NCBI GenBank assembly: GCA_964642015.1
Contig: CAZXLF010000008.1
Span: forward strand, 18,705-82,704
Length of the DNA stretch: 64,000 nucleotides
Direction: 5' to 3'
Source: an uncultured Planctomycetia bacterium
GTDB lineage: Bacteria > Omnitrophota > Gorgyraeia > 2-02-FULL-51-18
How positions within the stretch are numbered: position 1 is the first letter of the stretch; the number at the start of each line of letters is the position of its first letter. The translations under genes were made by a program, and so were the position numbers. This document shows, in pieces, positions 11,045 through 44,800 of this stretch. The notes beneath the pieces are model-generated. The model did not search any database and had not been told where the DNA came from. It saw only the letters and a program-made list of their open reading frames with translations.

Positions 11045-11045
11045 G

Positions 11046-12011: not shown

Positions 12012-12070
12012 ATTTTATTGGTCAACGATATTCGGTGTGCGGTTTGCGCAAACCGCCAACCGAAAACCGC

Positions 12071-14038: not shown

Positions 14039-14041
14039 GGT

Positions 14042-15172: not shown

Positions 15173-15187
15173 AAGAAAGATGCTGAC

Positions 15188-16930: not shown

Positions 16931-16938
16931 GATTTCCT

Positions 16939-19739: not shown

Positions 19740-19764
19740 CGGGGTCTCTCCGCGCTCGAAAAAG

Positions 19765-20502
19765 TTATTTGGAAATCAATTGCACGATCTCGGAAGCCGT
19801 CGCTTCGGCCGTCGAGGTGATCGTGCTGATCCTTCCTCTGAAATATGAATAAAAAGCGAGGCACGGTACCGCGATCACAAGTCCGAACGCGGTATTAATC
19901 ATCGCCTTGGCAAGTCCTTGAGTCAGAACGACCGGGTGGATCGTCCCCAGTTTGAAGTAGTTGAATGCGTCGATCATTCCTATAATAGTGCCCAAAAGAC
20001 CCAACATCGGCGCGATGACGGCCATATCGCCAAGATAATTGAGGTTCTGCCAAAGCTTTTCGATGCGCGCCTTGCCTTCATACTGTACCGCGCCTTCGAT
20101 CACGGCCTTGCCATGAGAAAGTCTGGATAACCCTTTAAGCGCGATCGATGAGATCATATTCTCCTGCTGCTTGCATACCGAAGTGGCCTTCTGGAACTCT
20201 TTTTTTTCCAACAGAAAAAGCAGGTTTTCTGTAAAATCGCGCGGCGCAAGTTTTTCAGGGTTAACATGCATGAAATGGTAAATGATCGAGGACACAGCTG
20301 CAACAGACAAAAGTCCTAAAAAGATCATGCAGGTACCGCCGGCAACGACCAGTTGCCATAACGTAGTGCCTTTGTCTGCTGTTTCGGAAACCGCACCTAC
20401 ACCGGTTTTGGCCGCGAAAGCGTTGTACCCGACGAACAGTATCGCAAGGATCAGCAATGGCAACACAAAATAAAGGAAACGAAATTTTTTTAACATATCC
20501 AC
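19765..20502 (-). CDS. exbB: MotA/TolQ/ExbB proton-channel family protein
   Basis: 245 aa. A signal/TM helix is followed by the ExbB core with GLLGTIIGMIDAF and a C-terminal TM helix. Confidence 0.85.
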   Translation of the reverse strand: MDMLKKFRFLYFVLPLLILAILFVGYNAFAAKTGVGAVSETADKGTTLWQLVVAGGTCMIFLGLLSVAAVSSIIYHFMHVNPEKLAPRDFTENLLFLLEKKEFQKATSVCKQQENMISSIALKGLSRLSHGKAVIEGAVQYEGKARIEKLWQNLNYLGDMAVIAPMLGLLGTIIGMIDAFNYFKLGTIHPVVLTQGLAKAMINTAFGLVIAVPCLAFYSYFRGRISTITSTAEATASEIVQLISK

Positions 20503-20557
20503 TCCCGTGATTGATGAACTGTTGGATTGATGCTGGATAAAAATTCTTTGTTGGATG

Positions 20558-20567
20558 TATTATAACA
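20558..20567 (-). promoter_or_regulatory. candidate extended -10 promoter for exbB
   Basis: The minus strand reads ttTGtTATAAT (TGnTATAAT) about 55 nt upstream of the exbB ATG. A GGGAG Shine-Dalgarno sequence lies 5 nt before the ATG at 20502. Confidence 0.35.
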
Positions 20568-20611
20568 AATATTTTTTTGGAAAGAAAAGGATTATCCTTG
20601 CCGGAAGACGG

Positions 20612-20649
20612 ACAAAAATAAGCTCCGCCGAAAGGATTCCGGCGGAGCT
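20612..20649 (-). terminator. Rho-independent terminator for the giant gene
   Basis: A perfect 10 bp GC-rich inverted repeat agctccgccg / cggcggagct (20621-20630 and 20640-20649) encloses a 9 nt loop. On the minus-strand transcript it is followed by UAUUUUUGU (complement of 20612-20620). It lies 160 nt downstream of the stop at 20810. Confidence 0.6.
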
Positions 20650-20809
20650 ATGAGCGCATTTGAAAAGTCGGCTACGCTCCGGACTGATTGGGATCGGTCG
20701 CGCTCCAGAGTAACGTATAGAAGCGATTTTTTGGATCGTTCTACTTCTCCCAAAGCGCGGGATTCGCGAAGCGTAGCCTAAAGATTAACAATGTAATGAA
20801 CAAAATACC

Positions 20810-23800: not shown

Positions 23801-26800
23801 ACCTTTGCCTTTGACCGCTTCTTTCGAACGTGCAGAATTAAAGATTTCGTCCGGCAAAAATTCGCGGTAGCGGGCTAATTCCTCATTAGTATATCCGTAA
23901 GCTGTCGCAGCGCCGTAATTCGACGCGGTCGCTTCCGATGAAACGAAGCTATGAGGGAATTGGGCATTCGGCCGGTTGGCGATCGCGATCGTAGCCGCTG
24001 TCGCTTCTGCGGAACCGCTGCGCCCAAAAACCAAAAGGTGTCTTCCATTCAGGTCCGCACCGATACTTGCAACCACACGCGGCAATAGATCGCCATCGCC
24101 GGGCGTTTGGATCTTAAGTCCCGGATATTGCGACTGCAAGGCTCTCGCGTCATTGATGATCTGTTGATGACGATGCTGCGAAATAGCCTTTTCGTAATCT
24201 TTCTGCAGATCTGCCGCCCTGGGCCCCAGGGTCAAGATGGTAGCCTGATTGATGAAATCGGATTTAAACGTTGTGAACTCAGGACTGTTCACATCAATGC
24301 CGAGAGCTTCAGCTTTTACTTTCGCTATCTTCTCTAAAGCTGTGCTCGGCAGATCGAACGGCGTCACGCCTGCATCACTTGGCGCATTAAAGCTGACACC
24401 TCCTATACGAAAGTTATCGTTGATCAGAAAACGATTACGGCCATCGAGCTGGCTCTGAGAATCCTCTTCAAAGAACGAAAATAACGAAGTGCTGTCCGTC
24501 GGCGTAGACACCGCTTCAGGAACGATCAATCCATTCGTCTTTTCAAGCGCATCGCCGACGAAATAAAGGATTTTTACTCCTTGAGAACGAAGATCGCTAA
24601 GATGAGTATTCAAATCCGTCACGCCGCCGTACGGAATCTTTTTACCTTGGAAATAAACGCTTCCTAAATCTAATGAGTACGACAGATCTCTTGAGCCTTC
24701 ATCGGCCAATATCGCAACCGCAATATTCGGATTATGCTCCGTAAAATACTGAATGCTTCTCTCGGCAAAGTGCACTGCGTTGCCATCAGCGACTTCTTTT
24801 ACATCTTTACCCTGACCAGCAAAAAGTATCGAACCAAACGCCTGGCTTGCAGAAGAAGCAACCGCGAACGACGTTAAAGGATTATTCAGTGCCGTCGAAG
24901 CGGATTCAGTACGCGTATCGCCGAGAGCTTTGACTTCGATCTTCTCTGCTTTCAGATTGTAAGGGTTGCGTTCGAGCGCTGGACCGAAGTTTTCTGGCAC
25001 ATTGACCGGGATGAATTCCGCCAGGCGCGCTCCTGACAAAGCAACTGAAGACTTGGTGCCAATAATTCCTATTCCTTCAATGTTCACGGACGTGCGGTTA
25101 TATTGCCAGCGGCCTTCGCGCTGAATGCGCTCGATAGCCCGGTTCCTGCCCGTCAACTGTTGATTCTCGGCTGTCTTCAAATCTTCAGGATTGGCCTTGG
25201 CTTGGTCCGCAGCGTCAAATACATCGATCGATTGGACATGCGAATCCTTGAGCCCAATGTTCAAAAAGAACGGGAGAGCAGGATTCAGGTTATTTCCGTG
25301 GACAAACGCGTTCTTCAGCAGATCATTGATAATATCCTGCACTTCGGTATTTGCGGACTCGCCTTCAAACGCAAAGTTAAGCTGGGATGATAAACTGGAT
25401 AAAGCCAAACTGACCGATTTATAAAGATATTGTTTAGGATATGCTTGCAGACTCGTTAAGTCTATCCTGATCGCTTTCCCTTCGCGGACCGCTCGGACCA
25501 ATTCGGCAACCTGGGATTGACTGTAAGCATTGTTTAAGTCAAAGCTCAGGATCTCTTTAGCAGTAGAAACGTTCCTAACGTGCTCCGATAAACCTAACTC
25601 ATTGCCTGCTAAACGAGCACCTTGCTTTGGAGTCGGAGTCACAGCGATCGTATATAGCGAATTTTTATTTTGAAGAATAAGTCCAAGTACTCTATCGTAA
25701 TAGAAGCTTAGCCCGCTTACCTCTTTTTCAACACCGGGAGCGATCGAGTAATTATGGCCAGTGGCACGAGGCGACTCAATATGAAAAACCTCAAGACCAT
25801 TGGTGACGGGATTAAAGTCGATCTTCCAAGCGACGCTAGATTCGGGTGCAGATGCAGGTGTCTCAGGCGATGAAAAAGCAACAAGAAGCGCAAAGCTTCC
25901 CTTGTCGGCAACAGGATAACGCCCGCGCTCTTGAGGGCTAAGCCTTTGCGGGGAAACAGTTATAGATTCTAGCCCCCTAAGGAAAGTTAATTTTGCCTCA
26001 GCGGCCGTCAATTTTTCAATACCGGTCAATTCACTTTCCAAAACACCCTGGCTGACGGCAACATTTACGATACGCCTGACCGTTTCCACACCAGTTGCGC
26101 TCGACAAGGATATATTTTCCGCAACGGGAAGATTCGATAAAGCTCTGTTCGCACTGACGATGGCCTGCTGTTTGACTTCTTCATTAGTCAGCCGAGCGCC
26201 CTGCGGACGTGTAGTTTCATATCGGGTCCGAGCCTGAGTTAAGTCATTGAGCGCCTTCGCCAATTCCACATGCGCCACTTCAACTTCTTTCTCAGCTCGG
26301 ATCGTTCGCTCTATTAATTGAATCCTGTTACTCGGAACCTCTCTAACATCAATGGTCTTCGATAAATAACCTTGCCTTTTCCACGATTCCAATTCTTGAA
26401 TAACTTGCGCTGCAGCAACCTGCACGCCACCAGCTTCTCTTGTATAAATTGTTCTATCCTGGGATCTAATGAATTCACCTCGTGCGTCTTCACTTGATTC
26501 AATTTGAGCCAGTTTACCGCGCGCCACTGGACCAGGGTTTTTTCTTAATTCTTCAAGAAGAGGTATATAATTAACTTGCCCGTAACTAGGCTCTCCTTGT
26601 GATTCTGAACCTGTCCTTAAAAGTGGGAGTAATTGTCCTAGATATCCGATCGTGCGGTTATCGACCCCTCGATCAGATGAAATACCGTGACCTGAAAAAC
26701 GATCCAGTATCGCCGGATTTCTTGTTAAGATGCCTCTGATTAAAATATCAAAATCTCTCCGGAAATTTTCATCTCTAAATCGCTCTGTAATGCGCGTCGC

Positions 26801-29800
26801 CCACCGGCTGATATCATTATTATCAGCGCCGCCTATAAACTTCTCTAACAGCCTTTCGGCCGTCTCCTCCTGGGCTAGCCGGGCTCCGGCTGCCATTACC
26901 TCTAAATTCTCTATAATTTTTTGAGCCGCGCCCAGCGCTGTCAATGTTAGCTCAATTCTTTCCTGTACACTTGTTTCAGGCCGTTTCGCTATCTCGTGGA
27001 AATTGTCAATGCTCTGTTTTGCCTGCTGAAGCTGCGGGACGCCGTTAAAAACATCTTCCAAATATAAGAGAAGATCGGAATGGCGGTCTTCATAATCCAC
27101 ATGGAATGACAGACTCCAATCCCCAACCGTACCTAGCGAACGGACATAGTCAACGCTTTCAAAAAATCCTTTATAGCCGGGCGTACTCACTTTAACGACT
27201 TTCTCGGTCAATCCGTTCTGTTTGTATTTCCAGAAAAACGGTGAAAACCTTTCATTGAGCCCGTCCAATATTCTTCTCGCCTCATCCTGTCCAACGGTCT
27301 CGATATTTCCCAAATTTTTTCCAGCTTCCACAACTTTTTCCCTCTTATCACTTTCTTCAACGACGCCGGCAAGGAACGAGATCATCTGCCGAGCGGTCCT
27401 ATCCACACTCACTTTTGGCGATTGGAGAAGAGCGTTACGCGCCATCTCTCCGTATTTTTCCTTATCTTGGTAAATTTTGCTGAAGTTGACCAGAGCATCC
27501 AGGAAACCCGTTGTGGTAGGTTCGCCTTTACTATTAAAGGGTACGTTGAAACCGTTGGCGACTGCCTCGTTGTGTCCATCATAAAATGTGACTGATTCAG
27601 GCACAGCTCCATCGTGGCTGGCGATGATCAAGGCGCCATTCATTTGCGCTTTTTGAAAACCGGTGGCAGACGCTTCGCGTCCATCATCCGCAAGCATCAC
27701 CGAGAAATCAGTTCCTTGAAATAACTCAGGAGCTTCCCAAATGTTATAATTATCAAAAAATATGACTCTCTCCTTCAGCCGGCCCGTTTTATCGTCGTTG
27801 ACCGCTCTTAAAATTCTGTAATATTGTGTCAGCCCGTAGCTATCATCCTGGTGGGTTCTACCTCCAAAAACGAACACGATGCCCGAGGCGAGAAATGCCT
27901 CTCTCATCACATCGTTCTCTAAAACATCGGCGAATCGTTCGAGTCTCTTATATTCCACAATTCTTCTCACCCAAATGCCGATCGGGTTTTTATTATTGAT
28001 GGTCTTCTTGGCCCATGCCGACCAATCGTAACCGTCTTTCTTTTCGGCCATTCGTTGAGCAAGAAATTCCACAAGACGTGCACGACTTCTATCTTTGGCG
28101 GCTAAAATCTGATCGTTACTCATTCTCCTTACTTTTTCCAGATCTTTGAATTCATTTTGAGGCCAATAGGTCGAACTTACGCCATTAGTCACAAACTTGA
28201 TCTTAGAAGAAAACTGTCTCAAGAGGTCCATCTCCTTCATAACTTTGGCATGTTTTTCAGCGACGCCAAACACGCCATCCGAGGCATTTATAATGAGAGC
28301 TGTTGCATCGATCTTCCCTGTTGTGCTGTCCCGCACAGGCATGGATTCATCATAATATCGTGAGTCCACTTGCAGATGTTTCAGTGTCTTATCATCCCAA
28401 TGAGGATGCGCGTACAAAAGCGGAGTATGATCGTTAAAAATATAACGAGTACCCTTAAAAAATGGGTCGTTCTTAAAAGCGCTTCTTGCTGTGTCGCCAA
28501 AAACTTGGTGATGAACCATCATCGCTGAAGCTTCGCTCATGATCGTGACATCCGGTTTTTTATCCAATTTTTTAAGCAACGCAAGCGTTCCGTGACCTAA
28601 AATCCAGCTGTGATCGAACCTTGCCTCCTGCGCGTTATCAATATCGCGGACACCGGGATAAACGACATTGACTTTAGCAGTTATAATATCTTTGCCAAGT
28701 TCAGGAGCCAGGAAATAAACAGCTGCTTTACCATATACGCCCGCCGGGGCTTTTAGAACTTTTACATTTACTTTACGTCCGTCATACATGTCTACGGTGA
28801 TGTCAAACACGTGTTCCATAAGGTCTTTTAGATGGTGACTTACATTTTCTTTTTCAAGAGTAAGCGAACCATCCGGATGCACCTTCTGCACCCAAACGTG
28901 ATCATATAACAAAGACACCCCTGTCACGTCAGCGCCAAGTTCGCTGAGCGAAATCACTCTTTCCTTCAGCAATGGCCCTATCCCTCCTACTGAAGAAGCC
29001 ATCGCCGCTTTACGCATCTCGATCCTTCTTTGCTCATCCGTCAAAGAGCGATCTTCTTTTAATTTCGTCTGAAGGAGCCCCAATAATTCTCCACTCAAAG
29101 CCATTTCCATCGTAACTTCAACTATATGTTTATCTTTAAGAACAGGGTGATGAGCTTCAACAAACGATTGAGCTCCAGCAAGCCGTGCACCAGCTTCGGC
29201 CCGTTTAAACTTGAGCCACATAGGAAGCCTTCTGAAACCGTTCTTATCAGCCATGGCTTCCTGCAGTTTGGAACCTGCTCGCGCCTCCGCAGCTAGAAAT
29301 GTATTTTCGTAAACTGCCTGGACATCGCCGCTCGTACCGCCAACAATCGCATCGGTGATCTCAAGATCCGGATGTTTTTGACCGATGGCGTGAAGCGCTT
29401 GGACTGCATCGCTCAGCGTGGGATTACCTCTGATAAGAAGTGTCACGATACGATGATCTTTGGTGGTGGCAAAAATCGTCATCGGAAGCTGATGGTCAGG
29501 GCCGGACCAGCCTAATTGATTTCCTTTGGTCGTCGAGCCACCGTTTGTAAAATCGATCTTGTCTATAACGCTTACCCCGTCTTTTAAGATGCGCACACCG
29601 GCGATCGCTTCTTTAAAAATAAACTTATCCGGATTTAAAGCATTACCGGCCGCATCATAAGGTTGGCCATTTTTCAGCTCAACGTCATGGATCCCCGCTT
29701 TGTCGGCATCGAAAACAAGGAACGAAAAAGTTCCATTGAGCGGTTCTCCGACGGTTTCATTCAGTCCCAGCGTGTCCTGAGGCTTCATCACAAGTTTACC

Positions 29801-32800
29801 TTGGTTCACGATCAGTGTATTTTTTTCCAGCCACAGACCTTGGTGGGAATTTGTAGCCAGAACAATTTGATCTTCGTCAGGAGCGGCCTGGACCGATCTT
29901 TGAAGATTCTCGCCTAGAAAATCCTGCGGTGTGATCCGCGCGGACGTGGTACCGAAACTACGATTCAAAACTTCAGGATGATAAACATTTTCCGCTTGGA
30001 TCTTGTGCGTATCTATAACGAACGCGCGGACTTCAGCGGAAGTTTCAGACGTGCTGATAGCGACATCCTCGATCGTCTCGAGACCGTCCACTTTTTTCCC
30101 TTGCTTGTCATTTAATTCACGTCTTGTAAAACTTCCGGTCACAGCCGCTTTTGTTGTCAGTCTCGCGCCTTGGGTGATTATAGCCGGGGCTGGTCTTTGA
30201 ACGATAAGCGCACCAGTGGGTTTTTCAAAAACAAGACGAACGGAAGGAGGCCCACTGCGCAGGATAGGAGGAGCCCCAAAAACTCTCGTCAATTCAGGCA
30301 CTGGCTTAAAGCCGGCCTGAACAAATCGCTCGGTGATCTTATCCATGCTTTCGTAAGTAAAAGGCAAAGGCATCCACTCGCGGAGGTTGAATAATACATG
30401 GCCCTGATAATCCTCCAAAGACAATAAAAGTTTCTGCTGTGCTTGGGTCAATTTCATATAATCCCTTGAAAGCTTCAGCGCTTTGTTTTTCCAGGGGCCT
30501 TCAGGCCAGAACTCAGCGTTTTTCAATTCTTTTTCAAATAAAGGTATAGATTGTTTTTTGTCCGCTATCAGAGTTTCAACGACGATCACGCGTCCGCCGG
30601 GTTCCAGGATACGAAAGATGTTATCTATCTTTTGTGTTTGAGTCTCCTCATCCATATGGTGTAGCGCCCATTTGATGATAGCCGTGTGCACATGGTTCGA
30701 ATCAATATAAATATCACCGCCTCTTTCTGGAACGTAATGAACCCTGCCATTTTCTGTTACAAGATCCTTTCGCCAATCGTTAACATCCGTCCCGAGTATG
30801 GTCGTATTATTGAACCTCTCATCTGCGGCTATGGCGAATGGAAGATCCGCTCGGCCGGTTCCGATATCGGCTATGATACCTTCATTAGGCAATATATCTT
30901 CGACCAAAGGCAACGCTTGCAACTTGGCAAGTTCCCTGCCGTGCGCGAACATGAGTTTACGCAATTCGAAAGGCAAAACACTCGCGGCTTTTCCCCTGCC
31001 TTGCGAAAACTCTTTAACAAACAGGTCCGCCAGGTCATACGGATCTCTTTCCCTGCCGCGTCTGTCTTTGTATGTCTTCAGTAGAAAATCCACCATCCGC
31101 TGCACAAGTTCCTCTCTGCTCATTTTCTCGCCTCTCAAGCTCACTGCTTGCGGATTCTTGCCAAACTTATAAAGCCCGGAGTTAGAAAGAATTTCCGTAT
31201 CAAAGCGGCGAAGAATAAGTTGAGCGAAAACATCGCGGACCGCTCGGTTTTCCAACGCAGGCAACGGATTGAAAGCAATATTTCCGCGCGGGGATATACT
31301 CGCTGCCAGGCGGGCTCCCTGGATCAGATACAACGCGCCGACAGCTTTATTCAAGGCATTTCTGTCAGAAGGAGTGGGGCTTGGACTCTCAGACAACAGA
31401 TAACTTTGATATCTACTTATGACGGATCCAATAAAATCGTCGATCTGCTCCCTTGTAGACCATTGTTTGCTTTGGTTGGTAAAGCTTACGAGGTCTTCTC
31501 TGACATGATAGGACTGGTCAGTGATCTCGCTGGCTAAAGTGGTCAGGATACCTGACACCTGATCCTGAAGACGAGAGAATTCAAAAACAGCCTTTGTTTC
31601 CGTAACAGCTGCCTTATTTACAATGGCATTATTACCATAATAGATCGCCACCGTATCGCCCCGTTTCCAGCTGCTATAATGTGAGGGAGTAACGGCTCCG
31701 TTCTGGCCCACAACACCGGATTTTTCATCGATAAGATTCAAATTGACTGTATCACCGTTGGGCAATGCCTGGAAACTGAGTCCGGCAAAAGACCAATTTT
31801 GATCGGTTAGTTTCAAGGTCTGTTCAAAAGCAGCGATCTGAGTACCGGCGAGCCGCGTGCCTGCTGGTGGCTGAGGTGCACGGCGAGTGTTGAAAAACTC
31901 CAACAAATCATTTTTATCCCTAAAATCTTTTATAGGATAAGCTTTCCATGGCTGTGCCAGATCAACGACCTCGATCAGATCGGCCGGAATTGATGTGCCC
32001 AAATAATCGGCGGTAAGATCACCGAATTGCTGAATACCATTCGATTCTCCCCGTTGAGGCTGCGCAAAAATAGTCGGAGCGTCTTTGCGGATTCGTATCG
32101 CAAAAGTATTATGTTGAGTACGTGGATTTTCGATAAATCCTAATGCAGATGGCGCATCCCAGAAGAAAAGATATTGAGAACTGTGCGTCAAAGAAAATGT
32201 CTCATCGGTCGGTTGCTTTAAAGCGGCTGAAAGACCGTTGGCTCGTATACTTTCAAACCGATCGATCTTTGCTTCATGATAGATATATTGTGCCAAACGT
32301 TCTTTTTGCTGATAGATCTGCTTAGCTTCGACAAGCCGTTGATGACCAGAAGAAACAGGACTCTCTTTGGCAAGTTTTTCATCGATCTGGCTGATCAAGT
32401 ACTCATGAAGATCCTTCAATAGCAACGTATTGCGGGCTACTTTTTCTTCTGCCGCTTTTCTGGCTTCGGGAACCCCTATGACATCCGAATGAGCACCGTA
32501 TGGAATTCCATAGGGCAGCGTCACGTGTTGAAGATAATAAATAGGAATATGCGGAATATTCGCTAAGGCGTAAAGTCTGCGATGCGCTGCTTCTCTTTCG
32601 ACCGCATTATCAGAATGGGCATACGTATCGACGCTACGGGATATCACTCGCTTCGCCGCTTCCACTAAAATATCTTTTGGAAGATTTTCTAATACCAAAT
32701 CCTGTAGAAATTGGCGAAGATGTTGGCTGACATCACTCGTATTCACGAGCAAGTATTGCGCGACCGCTTCGATCTGTCCTTCTCGAGTTGAATTTTGCGG

Positions 32801-35800
32801 GAAGGGCACAGATGGAACATATTCCCGATTATAAGGCAACTCAACCAAAGAAGCGGAACTTTGAATCCCAGGTCTTTCCGGATTAAGAATATCTTCTCCG
32901 GTACGAGGTAATTGAGTCACAAACAGTCTCAAATCCCTTGTATTAGGCAATTCCTTGCCTGCCAAACGAGCTCCCTGGATCGTAATAAGGTACCCTTGGA
33001 CTCGGACCAAGATGCGCTGATTCTGAGTATCCACTTCTACAAGCGATCCTAATCCTGGAGCGGATAAAAGCTGGCGTCCCAATTCCTCAAGAGACAATGC
33101 TTGAGGGGCAGAGGCAGCGATCTGCTGTATTTGATCTACGGCTTCATTGATGCGGACCCGGGAGATCGCCGGCTCATAAACTTTTCTTTCATATTCCGCG
33201 GCTCTTGAGTTCCATGAATCGTCATATTTAGCAGCCTGCTCGATCAACTGATTCCATTCAGGAGTCTTGTTCCAATAAATATTCGCCGCCTGGTTGACCG
33301 CTTGCAAAAGAGACCTAATCCTTTGATCGCGCGGTTGATTCGGATGAAAAGGTTCATAAGGAAAACCTACTCCGTTCCACTGATCAAAAAAGTCTTTCAA
33401 GCCTCCTGTCTTTGGTGCGATCACAGGTGTACCAAATTTATTCGCTATCTGTTGCGCAATACCCGCAGGCTCAAAATGAGAAGGCATTAAATAAGCGTCG
33501 ACGGAAGCATATAAACGCTGAGCGATCTTATGATCAAATCCGACAAGCACCGTCAAAACATCCGGATACCTCTTTGCCAATTCGACCAACTTGCTCTCGA
33601 TCGCTTGGCCTTCCGTATCGCCTTCCGTTGCGGATCCCTGGATCACAAGTCGGACTCTCTGCCCTTCTGCGCCTCGAACACCGCGCAACGCTTCCAATGT
33701 GCCTTCGTCGATATCGCCGTAACCTTTCTGTCCTGTAAATCGTCCGACACTGCCAATGACAAGATCCTTCAAAAATTCCGACTCAGGAACATGCTGCAGA
33801 CCGCCATTGACCACTTTCAATTTAGAAGTATTTATTCCTTCGCCCGAATTTATCTGCCGATAAAATGCCGTTTTATTTTGGAGATGGGCAGCGACCGCTT
33901 CTTCGGGAGTAAATTGTCTATAGCGAATATGGTCGTTATCTCCTGCCAACGCCGGTTCTGAAGAGGGCGGATGAGCTCCGCCGCCATTGAAGACCGCTAT
34001 CGTTTTACCTTCATCTCTCATGCGCTGGACCATTCCTTCAAATCCAAACGCGGTGCCTCCCTCTTGCGCTGACTTCGTCAACTCGGACAGATTGCCTTCG
34101 CTGACAGCCACAAGACTATCTGCGCCCAATAAAAATCCTTTGCCCAGAGAGATTTTATGTCCCGAAGTATTGTTACGATAATATTCAAGGCCATTATGCG
34201 TGTCAGTCACAAGTTTTGCTTCCAGATTTAATAAATTAGAAGAAGGGTTCTCATCGTGTATCACTTGCGCGATCGTTTGCCCGTTTCTTTCAAATAGGTC
34301 TACTCCGGGTTCCAGAACATGGTCTCTCACCAATTTTTGGATCAATTCATCATTCGGATTCACCAAAAGATAACCATTGAATACACCTTGATAAGCCATA
34401 TTGTGAGTGATATAAACTACGGCTGTTTTCGGAAATTGGCTGGCATAATTGTTCTTCGCATAGACGGGGATCAAGCCGGTTTGCCAATCGTTGGCATGGA
34501 TCACATCGACAGGCAATCCTAATTCGAACACCACTTTCGATAAAATTTCCGACTCGATCAAACCTCTCAAACTATCAGGTTCTTCATAAAGTTTCCTGAA
34601 AAGGATATTTTCCCGGTCTTCTAATAGATTATAGGTAACGCCGTTTCGCACAAAGGTCCTGACATCGATCTTCACAGAACCCCTTCCTACAGGGATCTCA
34701 AGCGTTTTCACCTGGCCTTCTTTGATCACTTTTCCAAAATTAGGCGCGATCAGGCTGACGCGATGTCCGCGCTGCGCAAGATTGACTGGCAGATTCTGAT
34801 TGTAATCAAACTGTCCGCCTGCTTTCGGCAATTCAGTTAGACCGCTTTCCATAGCTACGAATACAATGTTGCGCGGTGTTGTTGTTACATTTCCCACCGC
34901 CAATCGCGCACCACCCACCGTGACATTGGGTCTTTGTATGGATTCAAAGAATTCTTTGAGTTGGCGTTCATCTTTAAATTGAGTGATCGGGATCCCTATC
35001 CATGGATATAAAGGGTGGACGACCTCTACATAACTTGCAGGGACATTTGTCGCACGATAATCCCCATTGTCATCTCCGAGTTCTCCGCCGGGGCTGGGAG
35101 CATGCCAAACTGTCGGAGCAGTTTTAATGGCACGTAGTAAAAGGTCTCTCGAACCTTTTCCAAATTCGCTGTTTCGTATTTGATTGAACGCGTAAGAATC
35201 CGTGAAAAATATTGAGTCACGTCGTTCAGCGCCTTGAGGAATAAAGTTGATATCAAGCCCATGCTCTTTGATGCTTGCGAAATTTACAGAATTGGCGGCA
35301 TGTGAAATAAATTGGTCCAATTGATATTTCTTCGAAGCCGTATCCGAAATAGACGAAAGGAGTCCGTGAGCTCCAGGATTTGCTTCTTGATCGAGCGTTT
35401 GTAATCTTTGGCTGAGCGCCGCAGTAAGCGCATCATGGATCTGTTTTAATCTATCTTCGCGCGTTTGAGTGGGAACCAACGGACTTGTCAGCGGGAAATT
35501 CAACGGTTTACGCTGATAGAAAATTTGATCGCGATTAAGATATGCTAACGCGTAAAGACGACGGCGGGCACCTTCCACTTCGTCAGGATTTTTGAATTTA
35601 ACGATATTGTTAATATCTTGTGCGATGAGTCTATTGATGACTTCTCGAATAGAATCAATGACAAATCGATCCCATTCAGGCACATGCATGTAATATTGAT
35701 CCAGCGATGTAAATCTTGCCCATATCCAGTTATCGTTCGTCGATAAAAACTCGACCGCCGCCTGGATCGCAAGCTCACCTTCAGATGTGGCAGGGTTCTT

Positions 35801-38800
35801 AAAATTAAAGTTCATTTCGACGGGTTTTAACGCAGTGTTTGTCAACACGGCATATACAGGTAAAGACTTGGCTTCGGTCGGAGGAAGCGATTGCGCAAGT
35901 CTTGCTCCTTGAGCAGTTTTCTGCTCTTCCTGGGCCGTCCCTATTCGTTCCATCAGATGCAGCTCATAATCCTTAAGAGCCTTAAGATCCTGAAAAGCGA
36001 TGATTTGATTGTAGGATACTCTTGGTCCGTTCAAATAATCTGCCGGTGCTTTATTATTCCCAAACATCCATTTCACTTTTTCAAAATTCATATTATCCGA
36101 GTCTGCTTCAACCGGCCACATCACGATCTCACCAAGCAGCGTGTCTCCCGTCACGGGATTGCCGTTCGCATCTCTTAAACTAGATAATAATGGTTGGTTA
36201 TTTATATCTTTCCAATTGTTCTGCATCCTATTCCACATGGAGGATTCTTTAACCGGTTTTGCCATGGCATCATTCAGACTGGTATAAATTAAAGCCCATC
36301 CGGACACATTGCCCATTTTAATCGGCCGCGCGGCCAAGAGTTTATTCGAAGCCACCTCGGCCTTTCCGGTAAAATAAGTCACCATGCTGCCCGCTCTTAC
36401 AATAGAGCCTTGTTTCAAAGAACTGAATAATATCGCCACCAATCGATCTATAAGCACATTAATACCGATCAAAGAATTAAACATGGTCGAACTATTAGAC
36501 GCATCGACAGTAAGATGAAGGAAAGAACCGGATCTGCGGTTTTGCTCAAAGTGGAGCAGGTTATACAGAGCTTCGTACAAACTCCCATCAGCCGTCAAAA
36601 GCTTATGATAGATCTCAGCGGAACCGATATCGAAATAGATGGTTTGTCGCGGATCATGGTACGAAGTTACCAATTTCGGCAGGCTCTCCCCTTTTAAAAT
36701 ATTATAAACTTCCGTGTAAAAGTCTCCTTTGTCTGTACCTCGAACCGCGCCGCGTGAAGCCAGGTAAGCATCCAAATCGATACCGCTTCTGATCTTGAAA
36801 AAGTCTCTTGACGTATCCAACTCATAATTGAACTGATGTTGATCCAACAATTGTGTTAACTGATCCAAAGCAACGAGGAACGCTTTATATTCAGCCTTGT
36901 CGCTCGAAGTAACAAGTCCGTTGGCTGTATTCGCATTTAGCAATCTTCTATTATCTCCGCCGGACGCCTGTAATTCGGCTTTCACTTTGGCGTCAAGTTT
37001 TGGATTGGCGAGAATAGAATCTCTATCTTCCTTTTCACCAAAATACTCAACGCTGCCATCTTTCTCATTGGCGATAAAGAAACCCAAACGATTCTGCACA
37101 TCGTTCAGGGATTCAGGACTTGTAATGGCGTTCATACCATTTTTGATCTCATGTCTTCCTATATAGATAGTGTCTCCGGCCAACCAAACCAGGCCAGGCT
37201 GTTTGATAAATTTAAGCCCCTGGGTCAGTTGATAAGCGCCTTGCAAGGCGTAACTCATTACACTCTCGAGATCGCTCCCGTCACGCAAAAGAACAGGTAT
37301 CCTGACATTGTTGGTTTTATTACCCGGAAGAAACCGAGTTGATTGTCCGCCGGCCTGCAACACCACAATATTCAAGTCATCAAAAGTGAGTGACGGCTCT
37401 CGTTGTATTCTGTTGGCGAGTCTTGTCCAATATTGGTTTTTAGGATCATTCAGATCCAAAGTGCCTGCTTTTAGCTGATCAAATATCGCCTTGGCCTCTG
37501 AATATCCGCGGACCAGCATTCCTCCGTTACCGATGCCACGGCCGGGATTGGTGCTGATGAGAACCGGCACATCATTTCGGATAGCGCCTCTATTACCTAT
37601 CCTGCCGGCCCTCAGGGATTCCATGTAACTTTCATAAGATGTTTTTTGATCCTGATCCCATGCGGTCACAATGATCAGATCTGCAGAAGGCTCCGCATTT
37701 TTCATTTCACTATTAACAGCATTTTCTCTGAATTCCAGGGTTTTACGAAGCTGTTCAGAGTTTAAAGCCTCTTCATTCTGAGCCGTAAGGCGTGCACCGG
37801 CAGTCAACCTGATAAGCACAGTCTCAGAATTGTTCCCTTGAGGAATTGCATCGATGCCTGCATTATGGAAATCGTTTGAGATCCATTGCATGAGACGGTC
37901 AAAATTTACTCTGTGATCTATCGAGATGCTTCTGAAATTGCCTTCTAAAACATAATCTTCAAACTTCAAGAACAATTCTGAGTCCAGATGCCTAAGCGCC
38001 TTCAACATATTTGAAGTATGCTCAGGATGGGCCGGGTCTTCTACTAATTCGTAATCCGATGCTTTGACGTTCGCTAGCCTAATCGATAAAGTCCGGCTTG
38101 AATCGACGCTGGTAAGAATATTTGTATTTTGTGGATTTGGCGCATTATCTTGGAAATCTTCCACCCAATCCCTGAATTGACCGGCCGTAACATGTCTGTC
38201 GATATAAATTCCCGCAAGACCTTGACCCGCCATATAAGTATCGAAACGAGCCTTCAGCGCATCTTCCTGTTCTAAGGCGAATAAGACCGTCGCTGTATGT
38301 CTAGGATGAAAATTGTGTTCGTAAATATTATAATTAGCATGTGCTGATACAGGCTTGGTTACGCTCGGAGGAGTAAGGAATTTCATGGGCTTGGCATCGA
38401 TCCTTGTGAGACTAGCGGTCGTCTCCTGGATCGCTTTTTCCAAATAATTCAGCGCAACTTTGACCGTTTTTCCTTTCACATTTGAATCGCCGATCAGGAA
38501 TTTAAACCTGGCTAATGCTGAAGTTTGGTCTGTCATCGTGGGAAGAACTAAAGCGCCTGATTGAATATTTTCTTCAGTTAAAGTAACTGTCGGAGATTGG
38601 TTTGCATCGGCGATCCTTTTCAGAAACCACAGCATATCTCTTAAATTTTCCAGACTTTCTTTTTGCGGTTCAAAACGTGTGTAATCATTCCCTCGAGGCA
38701 CGGTGACATCCTGCATTTCAACAAGAGACCCGGCGATACCGCCCGCCAATAACGTCGGCACCAAAGCCTCGGGTTTTCCTGTCCCTGGAGGATTGGCTAC

Positions 38801-41800
38801 GAATCGGTGAGGTTCAAATCGGAGATTAACCAGTCTTCGGGTAGTAGCATAGATCCAATTCGTCCAACTTAATATGCTGTTGGAACGATTAAGACGATCC
38901 TCCGTGACCAAATCAGGGAGTAGTTCTTTTTGGAATTTACGGTCGTCTACAACATAATTGGCCGTATTGAAGAGCCCCTGCACCGTCATCACATCGCGGC
39001 TCCGGGATGAGAGACTGGTCCAAAATGAATCTTTTATCTCAAAACCTTCCACTAATCTTCTAGTCCACTGATGGATGCCTAGCTTTTGATATAATTTGAC
39101 CAACGGCTGCAAAAGCGCTACCCCTTTTACTTTCGATTGGAATTTTGTCTGAGCTCCTCCTTTTTGGCCTGGCACTTTAACTGCGGATTCCGTAATCAGC
39201 GACGACCCCGTTAATAACTGTATAGCGGCTATTTTAGGATCAACTGTAGCGGCTCTATTATCAACATTTGATATGAACCGGGTTGTGCGTCCCTGCTGAG
39301 AAAGATGTTCGGTCAAACCGGACAATGTCGGAAAAACCATCGACGCATCATGATTGTCAGGCCACTCCAAGGTTTCTTTATCAATTTCAGGATCTACGTT
39401 CCTTGTAAAATCACCAGTCTTTCGATCGTAAGTGCTCGTAGAAGGGATCAATGCCAAATAAATCACTGGGGCATCCGCATCCGAATGAGTATAAATATGG
39501 ATGTCCGGATCTAAACTGAGCACACTTTCATGTAGCCCAAACTGCTGTCTAACGGCTGGGTTCTGAAGCGCTGTACGTGGAACCTCGCGATATCCCATGC
39601 GCCGGATATCCGCGATCGTGTCTTCATTGGTAAAATGGCTCGTCAAAAGAACCAAAGGTATATTATTTTGGTTGGAACCGCTCTGATAAATACCTTTCTT
39701 CTTATAACTGCTATTCGCGGCAGCGATCTGAGCGACAGCTATTTCGTTGAATGTCCTTAAGCCGTGAGATAGAAGGTCAACAAAATAAGTGCCTTTGGCT
39801 TTATCGGTGAAATAAGGCTCATCTCCTTTGTTATATTGCCTCTGCCCGAATCGAAAACCTCTCCCCCCCGCACTGACTACGACATAAAATCTTTTCGCAA
39901 GCTCATTCCCTACCCGCGATAAAAACCTGCCGGTGACCCTGATCTCGGCATTTCCAAGATCCGTGATCTCATTTGCCATATGCTCTAGGCCTACTTCACG
40001 TAAATGTGCCACGGCTTCTCTATAACTGACCCGCAACACGGTCGTTTGTCTATCAGAATAAGGAAAATACACGGAGTCTCCCGATTCCGTGGAAGTGCCG
40101 GGTTTCCAATCAGCCACTTGATTTGAATCCTGCAAGACTGTATCGATATTATTCAGTAAGCTATTTTCATTGGTGGAGGTTGAACTGCTTGAAAAGTCTT
40201 GAGAGATCAGCTCCAGAAGATGCTGTCTATAGATAAGATCTCTCACTTGCAAGCCTAATTTTTCATCATGCTGAGGTCCGGACAATCTGGGATTCGGATC
40301 GGCGACCTTCTGCAATAGATTGTAGGCGTTGATAAATGTTCTGTTCCTTCCAAAATCCTGGGGCCTCGGATTATTCAATAAAGTATGATAAAAAACGTAA
40401 CCCAAATGCGCTTGCGCGATCTTTTTGTAATATTCGTTGTACGGTCTATCGGTTTGGATCTTTCGAGCGATCCTCAAATGTTCGCTGATACTTAATCCGC
40501 CGAATCCGCTGAATCCGAACATGAAAGAAGTAAAATAAGTCCTGGAAGATCTTAAGAAATTCTGCATTATATTGATGCGCTGCCGGTCACTCCGAATATA
40601 CTTCAGCGAATAGATCAGCTTCGACAATTCGCGGAACGATCTCGGATCCGATTTTTTGGCGAGGATCACTTCGATCCCGGGAGGGCCATGAATGGGTTGT
40701 GTATCGATATGATAAGCAGCGTTTATAAGTCCATCGACAACGATCTGCATATATTGAGCTTGTAAGTCGGCCGGAATTAATGAGTAATATTTTTCCAGAT
40801 CGTCCATGAAAACTTTTGAGATCTTAACGATTTTATTTTCGTTATCAGGATGTCTTAAGGTAGCATCCGGGGATGTAGCGCTGGCATCATCCAATACTTG
40901 AAAATCCACTTTTTTAGCGGCAAGGTTGGGGTCTTGATTCAGTCTCGCTGACAAATTATTTCTTAAATCCTGATAAAATACCTGATGCCCATAAAAACCG
41001 GCTGTTTCTCCCGGTTTATTTCTCAACAACACTCCCGCTACGGCCAGTCTTGCTCCACTGGGCTGTTCCAAAAACCCAAGATCCGGATGCAGCATATCCG
41101 CGATCGATTTTGCAGCAGCAGACGGGTTTTTCAGAGCTTCGAACGCTTGAGAATTTCCGGTGATGAGCACGCCGCCTGCTTGATCAGCGCCGTAGGTTAT
41201 AGGAAATTCCGGCGACATCGGTTTTTCATTCACCACTCCATAAACATAAAGCTTCACAGAACCGTCAGCCTGCCTGATCGCGGTCACGTCAAAAGCAATG
41301 CCGTGCGATTTTAATTGATCGACCTTCTTGTATCCTTCTTGAGCCAATTTTCTTACATCGGACGATTGTAAAACAATGACAGTCCTGGCATTTTCGACCG
41401 TCGGGTAATCCATTACTTTGCTGACCTGCACAGTATTATCGATCGTTTCGATCGGCTGAGTTTGAAACTCTTCTATAGGAGGATGCGTTGAGTTGGCCTG
41501 AAAATGTTGGTGATTCTTTACCGAAGAGCCGGCGCCGATCCCGTTGAATATGGTCGTAAATCCGGATTCTTTTGCGAAGTAGATCAAATCAATCAGGCTC
41601 GCCTGATCCAGATCCTGCGGCACTGCAACCTTGCTTGCGATCACAAAATGAAATGGGTCCGCTAAAAATGGATTCGCGACAACATTCCATTTTTTGCTGA
41701 TACCTGCCCATGAGAGGATGCGTTCAATGAGAGGCATGTTTCGAGGATCCAGCCTGTCAGCGGGATCTTGGGCTTTACCCATCAAGAAATGACGGTAAAA

Positions 41801-44800
41801 ATAAGCTGCTAGCAGATAAATTGTTCTTATATTGTATTGATTGATCAAACGGGGAATTTCTGGAGGAGAAGCAGATGTAACTAAACCTTGGGCTTTGCCT
41901 GAGAAATCAGCAAGACGCGCGACAAACGGCCCGGCTCTGACATCGATAATATTTTCGAGCTTATTCTGATCGATGAATCCTATCGCCCTTTGTTCATAAT
42001 GGATCGCCTTCAGTACATCACGCAGTGAATAAATATTCAAAAATTGCAACGCCTTAACCAGCAGATTTCCAGTGAAAGCATTGATACTGGCTATGTTCGC
42101 AGCGGTCGATTTTGTTTTTTCAACTGCAAGTCTGGCTCCAGCTGCTAGCTGCGATTCTCTATCGCGGCGTTGTCCAGCTATGTCTTCAACTAAAGCCTTA
42201 ATCACCGCGTCTTCCTTTAATTTATCTAATATAGCTACGTCTCCTTGAGAACGAAGAGCTTGGAGGTTCGTATATTGGGATTGCAAAGGCTTTAAAAAGT
42301 CAGCAATTTTTTTCGCTCTTTGGCTTTCAAGTATGGTTAAGGCCAATGATTTTTCTGTTTCAGCGCGATTTGCTCCGGGCGCCGACAAAGCACTCTCAAC
42401 TTTTTCTTTTAATCCTTCGGTATCCGAACCTAATTTCTCTCCCAAAATCGCCTCAGCCTGCAAATAGCGCCGGATGATCTTATGATCTGTTAAAGGCGGC
42501 TGTATTTGATCTCTAAGTTTTGCGGCTGCCGGCGCGCCAACGATCGGGACTTGCGCATTGTAATCAAAAGTCGGCGAAATTTTCTCAACGAAAACTCTCA
42601 GCCCTTCCAAAGTCATCGCCGCCATAAACTCGTTCGGATCCGAATGAGGCGTGACAAAAGCGAGCTGAACTGCTAACGGCTCACTCTGAGGCGATTCTAA
42701 CTGATAAGTATGTGTGATCAACCCGGAATACTCTTCGGAACTATGCACAACAAATTGCATAGATTGGTCCTGAAATATTTCTTTGAAAATATCATGAACG
42801 GCCTGAATCTGATCGTTCGAAAGAACATTAGGAGTCATAATATCAATATCTAAATCTTCTACCTTAGAGAGATCCGTGCGGCCATTTTGATCCATGGAGT
42901 CCCAAACGCTCCCCGAAATCTTAAATTGTGCGTTCGCGCTAAATTGTTTTGCGGCATCATCGAGCCGTTTTTGAAGCAACGCCGCATTGATCTGTGTGCC
43001 GTCTTCGGAGAATAATGCAGCCGGACTGACTTGTGCAAGCCGAGCGCCGGTTGGAGCTAATCTCGCTCCTGCAGTCCTATAGTTTTCATCGTAATAATTG
43101 ACGGTCTTAAAAGCCGCAGACTTGGCTTGACCCTCGTCTTCTTTATTTAAAACCAACAAATCAACGCGTTCTCGATCTGTCAGAGCGGCCCAAAGATTAT
43201 TTTGAACGGCCGTTTTGGCCACAGTTTTCGCCTCGTTTAAAGCAGGATTTTGATCAGCCTCTAACTGCCGTAAATTTGAAAGCTCCGCCCCAAGTTGTTC
43301 TGCAAGCACATGCGCGCGAGCCTCTTTTGAAAGGCTTTTTTTGGCTTCGCTGATTTCATAAGCAACAAGCTGATTCACAACCTCTTCCTTTGCTTTAGTG
43401 GCATCAAAGTTTTTAAGGTATAAGAAAGCGTTTTGCTCATCTGCTGAAATCTTGTCCCACAATATTCCGGCTAAATTATTTTTTGCTCCCTGCGCCGCTT
43501 GCTTTTCTGCTGGCAGTGCTGTTGGCTTGGCTGCAATGACTTCAAGCGCACGCAAATTCCTTAAATCTGCCTGGTGCTCAAGCCGTAGCCTTTCTAAAAC
43601 TGTCTGCTGAAATGCTTTTTGGATACGTTCAGCGGTTTTTTTCTGGCCTGCTGTAACCAATGATTGCACTTGTTTAAAAATGTCGGCCTTCGCTTTGGCC
43701 AAATCATCATTATTAGCTATCTTCAGAATATCGTTCCGATCAGCGAGAGAAAATGAATCCCATAGCGCATCAATCAAATTATTCCTAAAATTCCTGGCAT
43801 CATCTTTGGCGGTTGTAATACGGGTATTTAGATCCGCAAGCTGCGCTTCCAGTTCCGGTGACGTCCCTTGAGATGTAATGGCTGCTTGAACGGTTTTCAC
43901 TTGGCCAGCTAACTCTGGCGCAACCCTATCAAGTTCTTGAAGCCTGATAAAATCGGAACGACGGTCCGCCGCGAGACGAGAAATTGAAGGTTTGATGCGC
44001 GCAGAAAGTTCTCCTTGAGCGCGTTCTGCGCGTCCTTTTTGAGATAAAATGAGATACAAAGGACGGATAATAAGTGGGAACAGCATCGCGGCTATCACTA
44101 ATACTGTCATAACTATTTGTCCGGAAAGTATTGTGGTCAGCAATAAAACACCGCCTATGACCAGTGGGCCAAGAACGCCTCCCACATACGCATAAAGCAG
44201 CACGGCGTAAGCAAGATTAATAGATGGGATCACTACGTTCGTGACAAATCTCCCCGCGATCCCTAAATAGTCCCTGAATGAACTAGGCTGTTGAGAAGGT
44301 TCAATACGACGATAAGCCCCGCTCTCAGGTGAACGGTAATACCAGGCACCTAATTCCTTGAAATTACTCATAATCTGTTTCAATCCGCCGGCTAGATCCT
44401 TTTTCACGAAACCAAACCATTTCCTATATCCCACACCCCACGGAGTCGCGCCGGGACCGCTGAGTATCGGCGTAGCTCCCCAACTGATGACTGTAACAAT
44501 GAACAGCCCAGACCAGACCAAGGCGACGCTCTGCCATAAAACGGCTCCGATCACAATGACCGGTAGCATCATCGCGGATATGACTATTTGTTTCTGGAAC
44601 ATTGTCAGCGTCGACTCATTCAGGCCGAAATGCTGCAAGGCCCAGCCCTTAGGGCTCACGACAAATTCCGCGAGGCCTTTCAAGCCTTTGATCTGACCAA
44701 ATGCGTATAACGGAATATACGCGGTGAAAATAAAAGCCAACGCGGGGAACGCAAAAAGAAAGTAAAGGGTGCCTCGGACAAAACCCTTGTCGAGCCACAT

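Follow-up and report, generated by a model that had tools for sequence, protein, structure and literature searches.

Nucleotide-sugar and alpha-glucan enzymes arranged as GARLA-bounded cassettes in a giant membrane-associated protein from an Omnitrophota-like bacterium

Why should enzymes of glucan metabolism be strung along a single, giant polypeptide? The question is raised by a stretch of 64,000 nucleotides of contig CAZXLF010000008.1 from an uncultured bacterium (the window, hereafter), which carries one uninterrupted open reading frame (ORF) of 43.2 kb (window 20810-63991), that is, 14,393 codons for 14,393 amino acids (aa). All genes and protein features described below lie, like this ORF, on the minus strand of the window. 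No in-frame stop precedes the first ATG of the ORF in the 9 nt left to the end of the window (63992-64000), so that the true N-terminus may be located further upstream and the giant protein comprises at least 14,393 aa. An initial annotation, made from the sequence alone, had proposed that an interval of this ORF (27380-39900) encodes a complete alpha-glucan toolkit as consecutive domains. Here we show that the interval contains recognisable sugar nucleotidyltransferase, glycogen synthase, methyltransferase and alpha-glucan phosphorylase domains, organized as cassettes bounded by the pentapeptide GARLA, and we consider what such a chain might do in the cell.

Pfam recovered the five domains of the initial annotation, and in the order proposed. 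The UDPGP-type domain, placed at aa 8031-8311, corresponds to PF01704 (aa 8224-8281); the glycosyltransferase family GT5 synthase (aa 9704-10204) to PF08323 (aa 9708-9976) plus PF00534 (aa 10073-10215); the methyltransferase (aa 11011-11144) to Methyltransf_25/11 (aa 11040-11137); and the GT35 phosphorylase (aa 11644-12204) to PF00343 (aa 11879-12129). The second nucleotidyltransferase was correctly located at aa 8871-9014 by its match to PF07959, but it is longer than had been proposed, spanning aa 8870-9263. We scanned the whole giant protein, which contains nine distinct Pfam families, and repeated the scan on 900-aa tiles at E ≤ 0.5, which revealed no additional domains. Neither the first 5,800 nor the last 2,200 residues produced any Pfam or NCBIfam match. 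The toolkit cannot be called complete, because branching enzyme, debranching enzyme, 4-alpha-glucanotransferase and phosphoglucomutase were not detected in the Pfam and NCBIfam scans. Conversely, the initial annotation overlooked a GT48-like, UDP-glucose-dependent synthase, a HIT-type nucleoside diphosphate (NDP)-hexose phosphorylase and the GARLA-bounded cassettes themselves.

The GT5 glycogen/starch synthase cassette (aa 9694-10340; 32972-34912) was defined from Pfam, PDB matches, an alignment of 85 sequences and an AlphaFold model. It matches Glyco_transf_5 with an E-value of 2.8e-30 (106.2 bits, versus a gathering threshold of 22.7) and Glycos_transf_1 with an E-value of 3.9e-12 (46.5 bits versus 26.4). 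In the matches to PDB sequences, motifs PKAGGQ (containing K9723), IHANDW, GRFTGQKG, FEPAGIAQ (containing E10174) and KTGGL align with those of E. coli and plant synthases, and all the E. coli residues tested (K15, D137, R300, K305 and E377) are kept in the cassette. Its key residues comprise K9723-A-G9725-G9726, H9832, D9835, W9836, R10084, K10089, E10174 and the TGGL at 10195. Likewise, every invariant column of the 85-sequence alignment with free-standing GlgA proteins is kept; these include the positions of K9723, G9725, G9726, H9832, D9835, W9836, K10089 and E10174, with R10084 in a column at least 90% conserved. The near-invariant Cys of the GlgA motif FEPCGL is an Ala in this cassette. 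The model obtained with the same alignment (predicted local distance difference test, pLDDT, 84.9; predicted template modelling score, pTM, 0.87) retrieved starch synthase IV, barley SSI and the glycogen synthases of A. tumefaciens and E. coli as top Foldseek matches, with target-normalised template modelling (TM) scores of 0.72-0.82; those to 6gne, 2qzs and 1rzu were 0.78-0.82, the best being starch synthase IV at 0.82. The cassette is thus predicted to have a GT-B twin-Rossmann fold superposable on solved synthases. A word-indexed protein search with this cassette retrieved free-standing GlgA only, with identities up to 32%, whereas giant proteins did not appear and seem to be missing from that index; a scan of a genome collection with the GT5 domain gave ordinary GlgA genes among the matches listed, and no other giant genes.

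The GT35 alpha-glucan phosphorylase cassette (aa 11601-12369; 26885-29191), identified from Pfam, TIGR02094, key residues and homologs, matches PF00343 with E-values of 1.3e-17 to 3.9e-19 (63.8-68.8 bits versus 27). This match covers only profile positions 308-580 of 713, although the N-terminal half is also present, from around aa 11622 and with a GGIG motif, as deduced from the match to TIGR02094 (positions 19-518 of 600, E 2.6e-33). Motifs FNDHTP, VTNGV, VRRIVEYKR and EASATGFQK align with rabbit muscle phosphorylase through the pyridoxal phosphate (PLP) lysine, which is K12114, the last residue of EASATGFQK (codon at window 27650-27652). Other key residues are GG11669-70, H11855-T11856, the TNG at 11935, RR12009-10 and K12015, with rabbit counterparts that include R569 and K574 of the phosphate site and H377 of the 'HT' motif. 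Across an alignment of the 36 closest homologs (22-63% identity), conservation reaches 95% or more at just 20 positions, which include G11669-G11670, H11855-T11856, G11937, R12009-R12010, K12015, E12106, A12107, T12110 and K12114, with H11855, G11937, R12009-R12010, K12015 and K12114 invariant; in sequence terms, what is conserved across this family includes the catalytic and cofactor set. The residues singled out by the initial annotation, namely the KxGG motif and catalytic Glu of GT5 and the PLP lysine of GT35, are therefore intact.

An exhaustive search with the stretch from the methyltransferase to GT35 retrieved 726 related representatives. The GT35 part occurs at 40-63% identity in other large proteins of 1.7-7.6 thousand aa, and also as free-standing proteins of 577-769 aa; its closest named relatives are the Omnitrophota proteins MGH7197593.1 (P0251, 3,825 aa) and MFH1858105.1 (P0253, 769 aa). 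P0251 and the larger P0250 (7,625 aa, from Logan) both start with a signal-anchor-like segment and share a conserved N-terminal domain ('IQDAHDSLEAQKKI ... VTGGFHA'). Inspection by eye further shows GH13-, GH77- and debranching-enzyme-like regions in both, which would make their alpha-glucan set fuller than that of the protein in the window.

Between these two enzymes, the methyltransferase cassette (aa 10892-11601; 29189-31318) comprises a class I S-adenosylmethionine (SAM) methyltransferase and a conserved C-terminal partner domain (aa 11288-11605). Taken alone, its sequence is marginal, at or slightly under the cut-offs of the Methyltransf_25/11 models (E 2e-5 to 5e-4; PF08241, 21.8 bits versus 21.2; PF13649, 25.7 versus 27), and the assignment depends on the profile of an 18-member family. 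All 18 members match Pfam methyltransferase models (best E 1e-12), and motif I (D11042-x-G11044-x-G11046) and the acidic D11069 at the end of strand 2 are invariant among them; other landmarks are H11111-H11112 and LEPGGRVIVVE at aa 11129. Against the PDB, the family profile retrieved solved class I SAM methyltransferases (E 7e-9), among them a D-glucose O-methyltransferase (E 3e-7), with no specific substrate signal. A word-indexed search with the cassette gave no match, although the exhaustive search did. From its sequence, the domain would be of a generic class I small-molecule or O-methyltransferase type and, since it gives no substrate signal, the methylated glucan considered in the initial annotation is pure speculation.

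The N-terminal part of the interval is formed by a double nucleotidyltransferase cassette (aa 7646-9362; 35906-41056), with a UDPGP-type domain followed by one of the fucose-1-phosphate (fucose-1-P) guanylyltransferase type. The former matches PF01704 with E-values of 7e-7 to 2e-8 (28.7-33.8 bits versus a cut-off of 22) and, in the PDB, yeast UGP1 (E 7e-4 over ca. 95 aa). The family motifs, taken here as a GGxGxR G-loop, (M/L)TS..T, DN....DP and KGG, are all present: the G-loop as SAGGRGFRFG at aa 8040, and then LLTSHFTNEDT at 8115, SNVDNRAATVDP at 8241 and QKGG at 8276, the last three standing, as read by eye, opposite matching motifs of UGP1. The second domain matches Fucose_pyrophosphorylase (PF07959) over nearly its full length (profile positions 4-384 of 418; E 1.6e-10 to 1.2e-11; 41-44.6 bits versus 34) and shows a G-loop, QAGGQSTRF, at aa 8879 and WLAGDTIY at 8936; a PDB search detected no solved relative by sequence. 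We predict it to be of the sugar-1-P nucleotidyltransferase type. The 560-aa spacer between both domains had no significant match in PDB sequence searches. Just upstream of the interval, a further cassette (aa 7285-7646; 41054-42139) matches DUF4922 (PF16269) at aa 7431-7500 (E 8e-7 to 6e-6), a HIT-type fold common to GDP-hexose phosphorylases, and contains the HxHxQ motif NHQHFQ at aa 7493-7498, from which we consider it NDP-hexose phosphorylase-like.

Further upstream, outside the interval but in the same protein, aa 5879-6366 (44894-46357) match the GT48 1,3-beta-glucan synthase catalytic domain (PF02364; E 3e-22, 79 bits, with about 500 of 819 profile positions covered). This domain aligns, with low identity, to residues 941-1318 of yeast FKS1 (E 7e-9), with 'AEDL' opposite 'NEDI' and 'GKSRE' opposite 'GKGRD', and has transmembrane helices on both sides. 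To our knowledge, GT48 is essentially a eukaryotic family. The domain is absent from the text of the two preprints on giant genes discussed below, and our literature search on bacterial GT48 found nothing relevant. The giant protein contains more than 15 hydrophobic helices, limited to aa 430-6645 and clustered around the GT48 domain, in agreement with the membrane association proposed initially; there are none in aa 6650-14393. The region preceding the GT48 domain (aa 1-5878; 46358-63991) holds around ten of them and has no significant Pfam match, its sole trace being a weak, below-threshold helix-turn-helix-like one (LacI, E 2e-4) at aa 583-606.

The last helix, aa 6624-6645, is followed by a Lys/Arg-rich stretch, SQKGRAERAQGELSARIKPSISRLAADRRSDFIR, with 8 Lys or Arg in 35 residues (helix and stretch, 43910-44122). 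By the positive-inside rule, a Lys/Arg-rich flank marks the cytoplasmic side of a membrane, and the cytoplasm is where nucleoside triphosphates (NTPs), NDP-sugars, SAM and phosphate are available to enzymes. Our topology reading relies on these two arguments alone: the ca. 7,750-aa tail would be placed in the cytoplasm because the Lys/Arg-rich stretch follows the last helix, and also because its enzymes need those substrates. The enzyme stretch thus probably faces the cytoplasm, and the absence of any helix after aa 6645, the charged flank and the cytoplasmic substrates speak against the action at the cell envelope, or at a cell-cell interface, that had been proposed for it. The giant protein contains only two Cys (aa 373 and 6168; 0.014%), compared to 68 in the 6,103 aa of 15 neighbouring proteins (1.1%), which amounts to an approximately 80-fold depletion. 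Related large proteins share it, with 0 Cys in 7,625 aa and 2 in 5,965 aa, unlike free-standing homologs of the same cassettes.

We also compared the locus with that of relatives. The neighbouring gene for a fusion of HemD (uroporphyrinogen-III synthase) and HemE (uroporphyrinogen decarboxylase) (655 aa; 12071-14038) has its best named matches in Candidatus Omnitrophota (50-55% identity), which, together with those of the GT35 cassette, point to an Omnitrophota-like host. Closer HemD-HemE relatives (72%, 63% and 63% identity) were found in groundwater-type metagenomes; they share the gene order GT4, HemDE, HemH, HemY, GST, RlmD, acyl-CoA dehydrogenase and so on, and the same locus contains giant genes for 15,285, 11,114 and 16,082 aa. 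In Blast comparisons with one of the 63% relatives (L086), only the C-terminal ca. 430 aa align, with 30% identity (aa 13966-14393, window 20813-22093, versus L086:7692-8753), and with the 72% relative (L084) only the last 66 aa, with 39% identity. The giant gene has a conserved C-terminal module and, at a fixed locus, otherwise diverges extremely fast. A PDB sequence search with the last 2,025 aa found nothing significant.

The gene of the 72% relative could be extended by 10 kb with JGI contig Ga0080064_1000216, identical to Ga0209726_10000190 where the two overlap. The last 5,965 aa of its product include the end of a fucose-pyrophosphorylase-like domain; three methyltransferase domains, with one block 61% identical over 746 aa; a GT5+GT1 synthase only 26% identical to that of the window; and a GT35 phosphorylase with FFTHT, ITNGV, RRIVGYKR and EASGTSGMK intact. 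By sequence, then, the enzyme set is kept in this relative, while its arrangement and most of the sequence are not.

How might these parts work together? We take the enzymes to be working because their catalytic residues are intact, and in the account that we favour the interval is the middle of the helix-free tail (aa 6650-14393) of a multi-pass membrane protein. Assuming the donor and acceptor specificities expected from their families, the nucleotidyltransferases would produce NDP-sugar from sugar-1-P and NTP, GT5 would use NDP-glucose for the synthesis of alpha-1,4-glucan, and GT35 would release glucose-1-P from glucan and phosphate; the HIT-type domain would convert NDP-hexose and phosphate to hexose-1-P, so that the reactions would close a loop. 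This loop would be tethered, on the cytoplasmic face, to the membrane-embedded GT48-like glucan synthase, ca. 1,300 residues upstream of the first cassette, which would use UDP-glucose. A local buffer of glucose-1-P, NDP-glucose and glycogen could in this way feed, or balance against, polysaccharide export and, should the chain stay whole, the fusion would keep the enzymes in fixed proportions and close together within a small cell. To our judgement, this account of a tethered, cytoplasmic-face string of enzymes has about an even chance of being correct.

Several observations weigh against it. The GT5 cassette does not reach the trusted cut-off of NCBIfam TIGR02095 (glgA, ADP-glucose type; 194.1 bits versus 328.45), a score by which it is, as judged from sequence, a divergent member of the family, and neither does GT35 that of TIGR02094 (115.7 bits versus 191.7). 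The UDPGP match is short, at 58 of 413 profile positions, and a single-sequence AlphaFold run of the region gave an unusable model (pLDDT 34). Moreover, about half of the interval consists of cassettes without a fold recognisable in Pfam, NCBIfam or PDB searches, the number of helices after the GT48 domain is ambiguous by hydropathy (6-8 segments), and extreme Cys depletion is more typical of exported than of cytoplasmic proteins. Lastly, the domain order differs in the 72% relative, with the methyltransferases before GT5, and none of the 726 representatives from the exhaustive search shows the methyltransferase adjoining GT35; these last two results argue against a strictly collinear chain working as an assembly line, an idea that we rejected.

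The most distinctive feature of the chain lies at its joints. The giant protein contains 18 copies of the pentapeptide GARLA, versus 0.085 expected from shuffled sequences, plus one GARLS, and GARLA appears in this reading frame only. The sites span window 21377-57049, with first bases at 57049, 55372, 43069, 43048, 42139, 41056, 35908, 34912, 32974, 31318, 29191, 26887, 25621, 25033, 22948, 22534, 22132 and 21391. In and around the interval, they fall exactly between recognisable enzymes, delimiting in order the HIT-type, UDPGP plus fucose-pyrophosphorylase-type, u1, GT5, u2, methyltransferase and GT35 cassettes. The corresponding junctions are located at aa 7285 (42125-42139), 7646 (41042-41056), 9362 (35894-35908), 9694 (34898-34912), 10340 (32960-32974), 10892 (31304-31318), 11601 (29177-29191) and 12369 (26873-26887), the last being the end of the GT35 cassette. 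The junction at aa 9694 precedes the initial strand of the GT5 fold by 14 residues, and in the AlphaFold model its GARLA is within the disordered first eight residues, of low pLDDT; that at aa 11601 lies ca. 21 residues before the GT35 fold, with equal spacing in P0250 and P0251. Cassettes u1 (aa 9362-9694; 34910-35908) and u2 (aa 10340-10892; 31316-32974), which flank GT5 and have no recognised fold, are paralogous, and both match the same region of the large homolog P0351 with 31-32% identity. For u2, PDB sequence searches found nothing significant, with only a faint match to designed beta-propeller proteins.

All five residues of GARLA are invariant, whereas each of them is encoded by varying codons and no conservation extends into the flanks. 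Because codons vary freely while residues stay invariant, selection on GARLA acts at the peptide level, and a DNA-level recombination signal is ruled out by the same variation. Homology blocks with other large proteins also begin and end at GARLA: aa 11600-12373 correspond to residues 4451-5229 of P0250 and 581-1351 of P0251, and the 61%-identity block shared with the giant protein of the 72% relative begins at aa 10890, at the junction of aa 10892. From GARLA to GARLA, the GT35 cassette is 53% identical to P0250 and P0251, and its length, 768 aa, compares with the 769 aa of the free-standing Omnitrophota phosphorylase P0253. The motif recurs in large homologs, with 9 copies in P0250, 8 in P0251, 6 in P0351, 5 in P0272 and 12 in the giant protein of the relative. 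Together, these results indicate that the enzyme cassettes are self-contained units of about the size of free-standing proteins, bounded by GARLA in a flexible linker, and identify GARLA as a candidate processing or junction motif. The motif is not described in the two preprints on Omnitrophota giant genes, nor elsewhere in the literature that we searched.

These junctions allow a different answer, that the ORF is translated once and cut at GARLA by a dedicated protease into some twenty enzymes in fixed proportions, the fusion being a mode of gene expression and not a functional tether. Many of the properties described above would suit such a polyprotein: a frame-restricted excess of GARLA, always at cassette boundaries; constant residues with free codons and unconserved flanks; its location, in the GT5 model, within a linker of low confidence; homology blocks that start and stop exactly at the motif; a GT35 cassette as long as a free-standing protein; and its recurrence in P0250, P0251, P0272, P0351 and the giant protein of the relative. 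West-Roberts et al. have already suspected the cleavage of giant proteins, although with no information on cleavage points (bioRxiv 10.1101/2023.11.21.568195). Nevertheless, Pfam scans found no protease domain in the giant ORF or its neighbours, a short linear motif could equally serve for docking or as the signal of a structural linker, and more distant homologs of the same cassettes occur in large proteins without GARLA. On balance, we regard cleavage as a serious alternative, although less probable than the tethered chain. With the same reserve, GARLA would mark processing sites, and this gene and its same-lineage relatives would encode bacterial polyproteins, here of ca. 1.6 MDa and some twenty stoichiometric enzymes. 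If so, giant genes could acquire, lose and exchange cassettes as units bounded by GARLA, which would explain a free cassette order with a fixed junction peptide and would provide the cleavage points that have been missing for the giant proteins of Omnitrophota.

Three other explanations are less compatible with the data. The tail could act outside the cell, or be delivered into a host, on foreign surface or storage polysaccharides, as in the model put forward for the 'Archaeovorins'. The low Cys content compared to that of the neighbouring genes, a trait of many exported proteins, the ExbB-ExbD-TPR-VWA gene set directly downstream and the published proposals that put much of the Omnitrophota giant proteins outside the cell, linked to predation, would favour it. 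Yet neither nucleotidyltransferases nor a SAM methyltransferase nor a synthase dependent on NDP-sugars would find substrates there, the residues after the last helix are rich in Lys and Arg, the Pfam scans, including the tiles at E ≤ 0.5, gave no adhesin, dockerin, lectin, HEAT, peptidase or lytic domains, and a 2026 survey of Omnitrophota reads sugar-metabolism modules as compatible with the cytoplasmic face (bioRxiv 10.64898/2026.06.07.730766); we consider this location unlikely. A scaffold of decayed enzymes that bind glucan, keeping the folds and losing catalysis, might be suspected from the 20-30% identity to characterised enzymes, the scores under NCBIfam trusted cut-offs and the very fast divergence of giant genes between relatives. 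It is made very improbable by the conservation of every catalytic or cofactor residue tested, by their presence among the positions conserved across the 36 GT35 homologs and by the retention of catalytic residues in the non-orthologous GT35 copy of the relative. Finally, only the unusual length would suggest that separate genes were joined through mis-assembly, or through sequencing errors by which stops were lost. There is no stop in 43,182 nt, the domain matches along 8,500 aa are all in one frame, and two independent Logan assemblies (SRR12313480 and SRR12313479) are identical to window 9214-26930 (17.7 kb, 0 mismatches); in one of them, aa 8996-14393 were called as one gene fragment, of 5,398 aa. 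The agreement of these assemblies indicates that the continuity of the part with the fucose-pyrophosphorylase-type, GT5, methyltransferase and GT35 domains is real and not a single-assembly artefact and, with syntenic genes for 11,114, 15,285 and 16,082 aa in other samples, we give an artefact almost no credence.

The GC content of the window is even (44-49%), 15 ordinary genes follow the giant ORF on the same strand, a search for tRNA genes in the window found none, and self-Blast of the giant protein detected no internal repeats at E < 1e-3. Directly downstream of the giant gene, window 14042-20502 encodes an ExbB/TolQ-like protein, ExbD, an 811-aa TPR protein (YbgF/BamD-like), a VWA protein and a GT4. 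The ExbB-ExbD-TPR-VWA set is also found beside the giant gene of relative ERZ27296333; the closest relative, L084, has a Ysc84-like gene in its place, and L086 lacks the set. The HemD-HemE fusion is in turn widespread, and nearly all its matches contain both Pfam domains.

Giant ORFs are common in Omnitrophota (PMC10066038), and GT5 and GT1 domains rank second among the contents of Archaeovorins, in which sugar-phosphate enzymes also occur (bioRxiv 10.1101/2023.11.21.568195). The protein in the window resembles them in being encoded by one giant ORF, in its numerous transmembrane helices and large unannotated stretches, and in containing GT5, GT1, methyltransferase and sugar-phosphate enzymes. 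It differs in size, with 14.4 thousand aa versus 30-85 thousand aa, and in that HEAT, TPR, NUDIX, C39/S8 peptidase, SecA-like and lytic transglycosylase domains were not found here with Pfam; the Archaeovorin paper, in turn, has no mention of GT35, UDPGP, fucose-pyrophosphorylase-type, HIT or GT48 domains. The 2026 survey defines a class of 'multi-enzyme metabolic cluster' proteins, read as membrane-anchored, without signal peptide and with cytoplasmic enzyme content, that includes a sugar-metabolism Module 2 around PF08323 and PF00534 (bioRxiv 10.64898/2026.06.07.730766). The giant protein shares with this class a chain tiled by many distinct Pfam families, without internal repeats and none dominating by copy number, the PF08323 plus PF00534 core, scattered methyltransferase and HIT domains, and transmembrane helices. 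Unlike Module 2, it lacks phosphoglucomutase, ROK kinase, receiver and radical SAM partners, while PF00343, PF01704, PF07959 and PF02364 are not mentioned in that survey, which does not discuss Cys depletion or junction motifs either. Because hydrolase, peptidase, NUDIX, HEAT and SecA-like matches are lacking at E ≤ 0.5 in the Pfam scans, we file the protein outside the strict Archaeovorins; it belongs to the broader 'multi-enzyme metabolic cluster' class. Since GT5, GT1, methyltransferase and sugar-phosphate enzymes in one polypeptide had already been reported for Omnitrophota, the fusion is less unusual than the initial annotation held; its domains, their order, the catalytic residues and the membrane link stood, but not completeness, the envelope site or rarity.

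Individual cassettes also have counterparts elsewhere. GT5 and GT35 share folds and catalytic and cofactor residues with GlgA and with GlgP/MalP and TIGR02094 proteins, but at 20-32% identity and in one chain instead of separate operon genes; the classical partners GlgB, GlgC and GlgX were not detected here. The GT48-like domain aligns with the catalytic region of fungal FKS1, and resembles it and plant callose synthase in its flanking transmembrane helices, although in a bacterial host, with low identity and over ca. 500 of 819 profile positions. In the mycobacterial methylglucose lipopolysaccharide pathway, an alpha-1,4-glucosyltransferase and SAM methyltransferases act on one glucan; the methyltransferase described here carries no substrate signal. 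Viral and other polyproteins have conserved cleavage sites at their junctions, and by analogy the strictly conserved short peptide at every boundary between autonomous units could play a similar role, even if in the context of a cellular membrane protein in which no protease domain was found; a literature search for 'polyprotein' with Omnitrophota found nothing relevant.

Giant genes are a sizeable part of the small Omnitrophota genomes, and the one analysed here is an unusually readable example, with a membrane glucan synthase followed by what would be a closed set of glucose-1-P, NDP-sugar and alpha-glucan enzymes, in discrete, expressible cassettes that make the idea of giant proteins as enzyme arrays testable. 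In all, multi-enzyme giant proteins with GT5, GT1 and methyltransferase domains were already known in Omnitrophota, whereas the GARLA junctions and the depletion in Cys look new, and these are the parts that could change our understanding of giant proteins.

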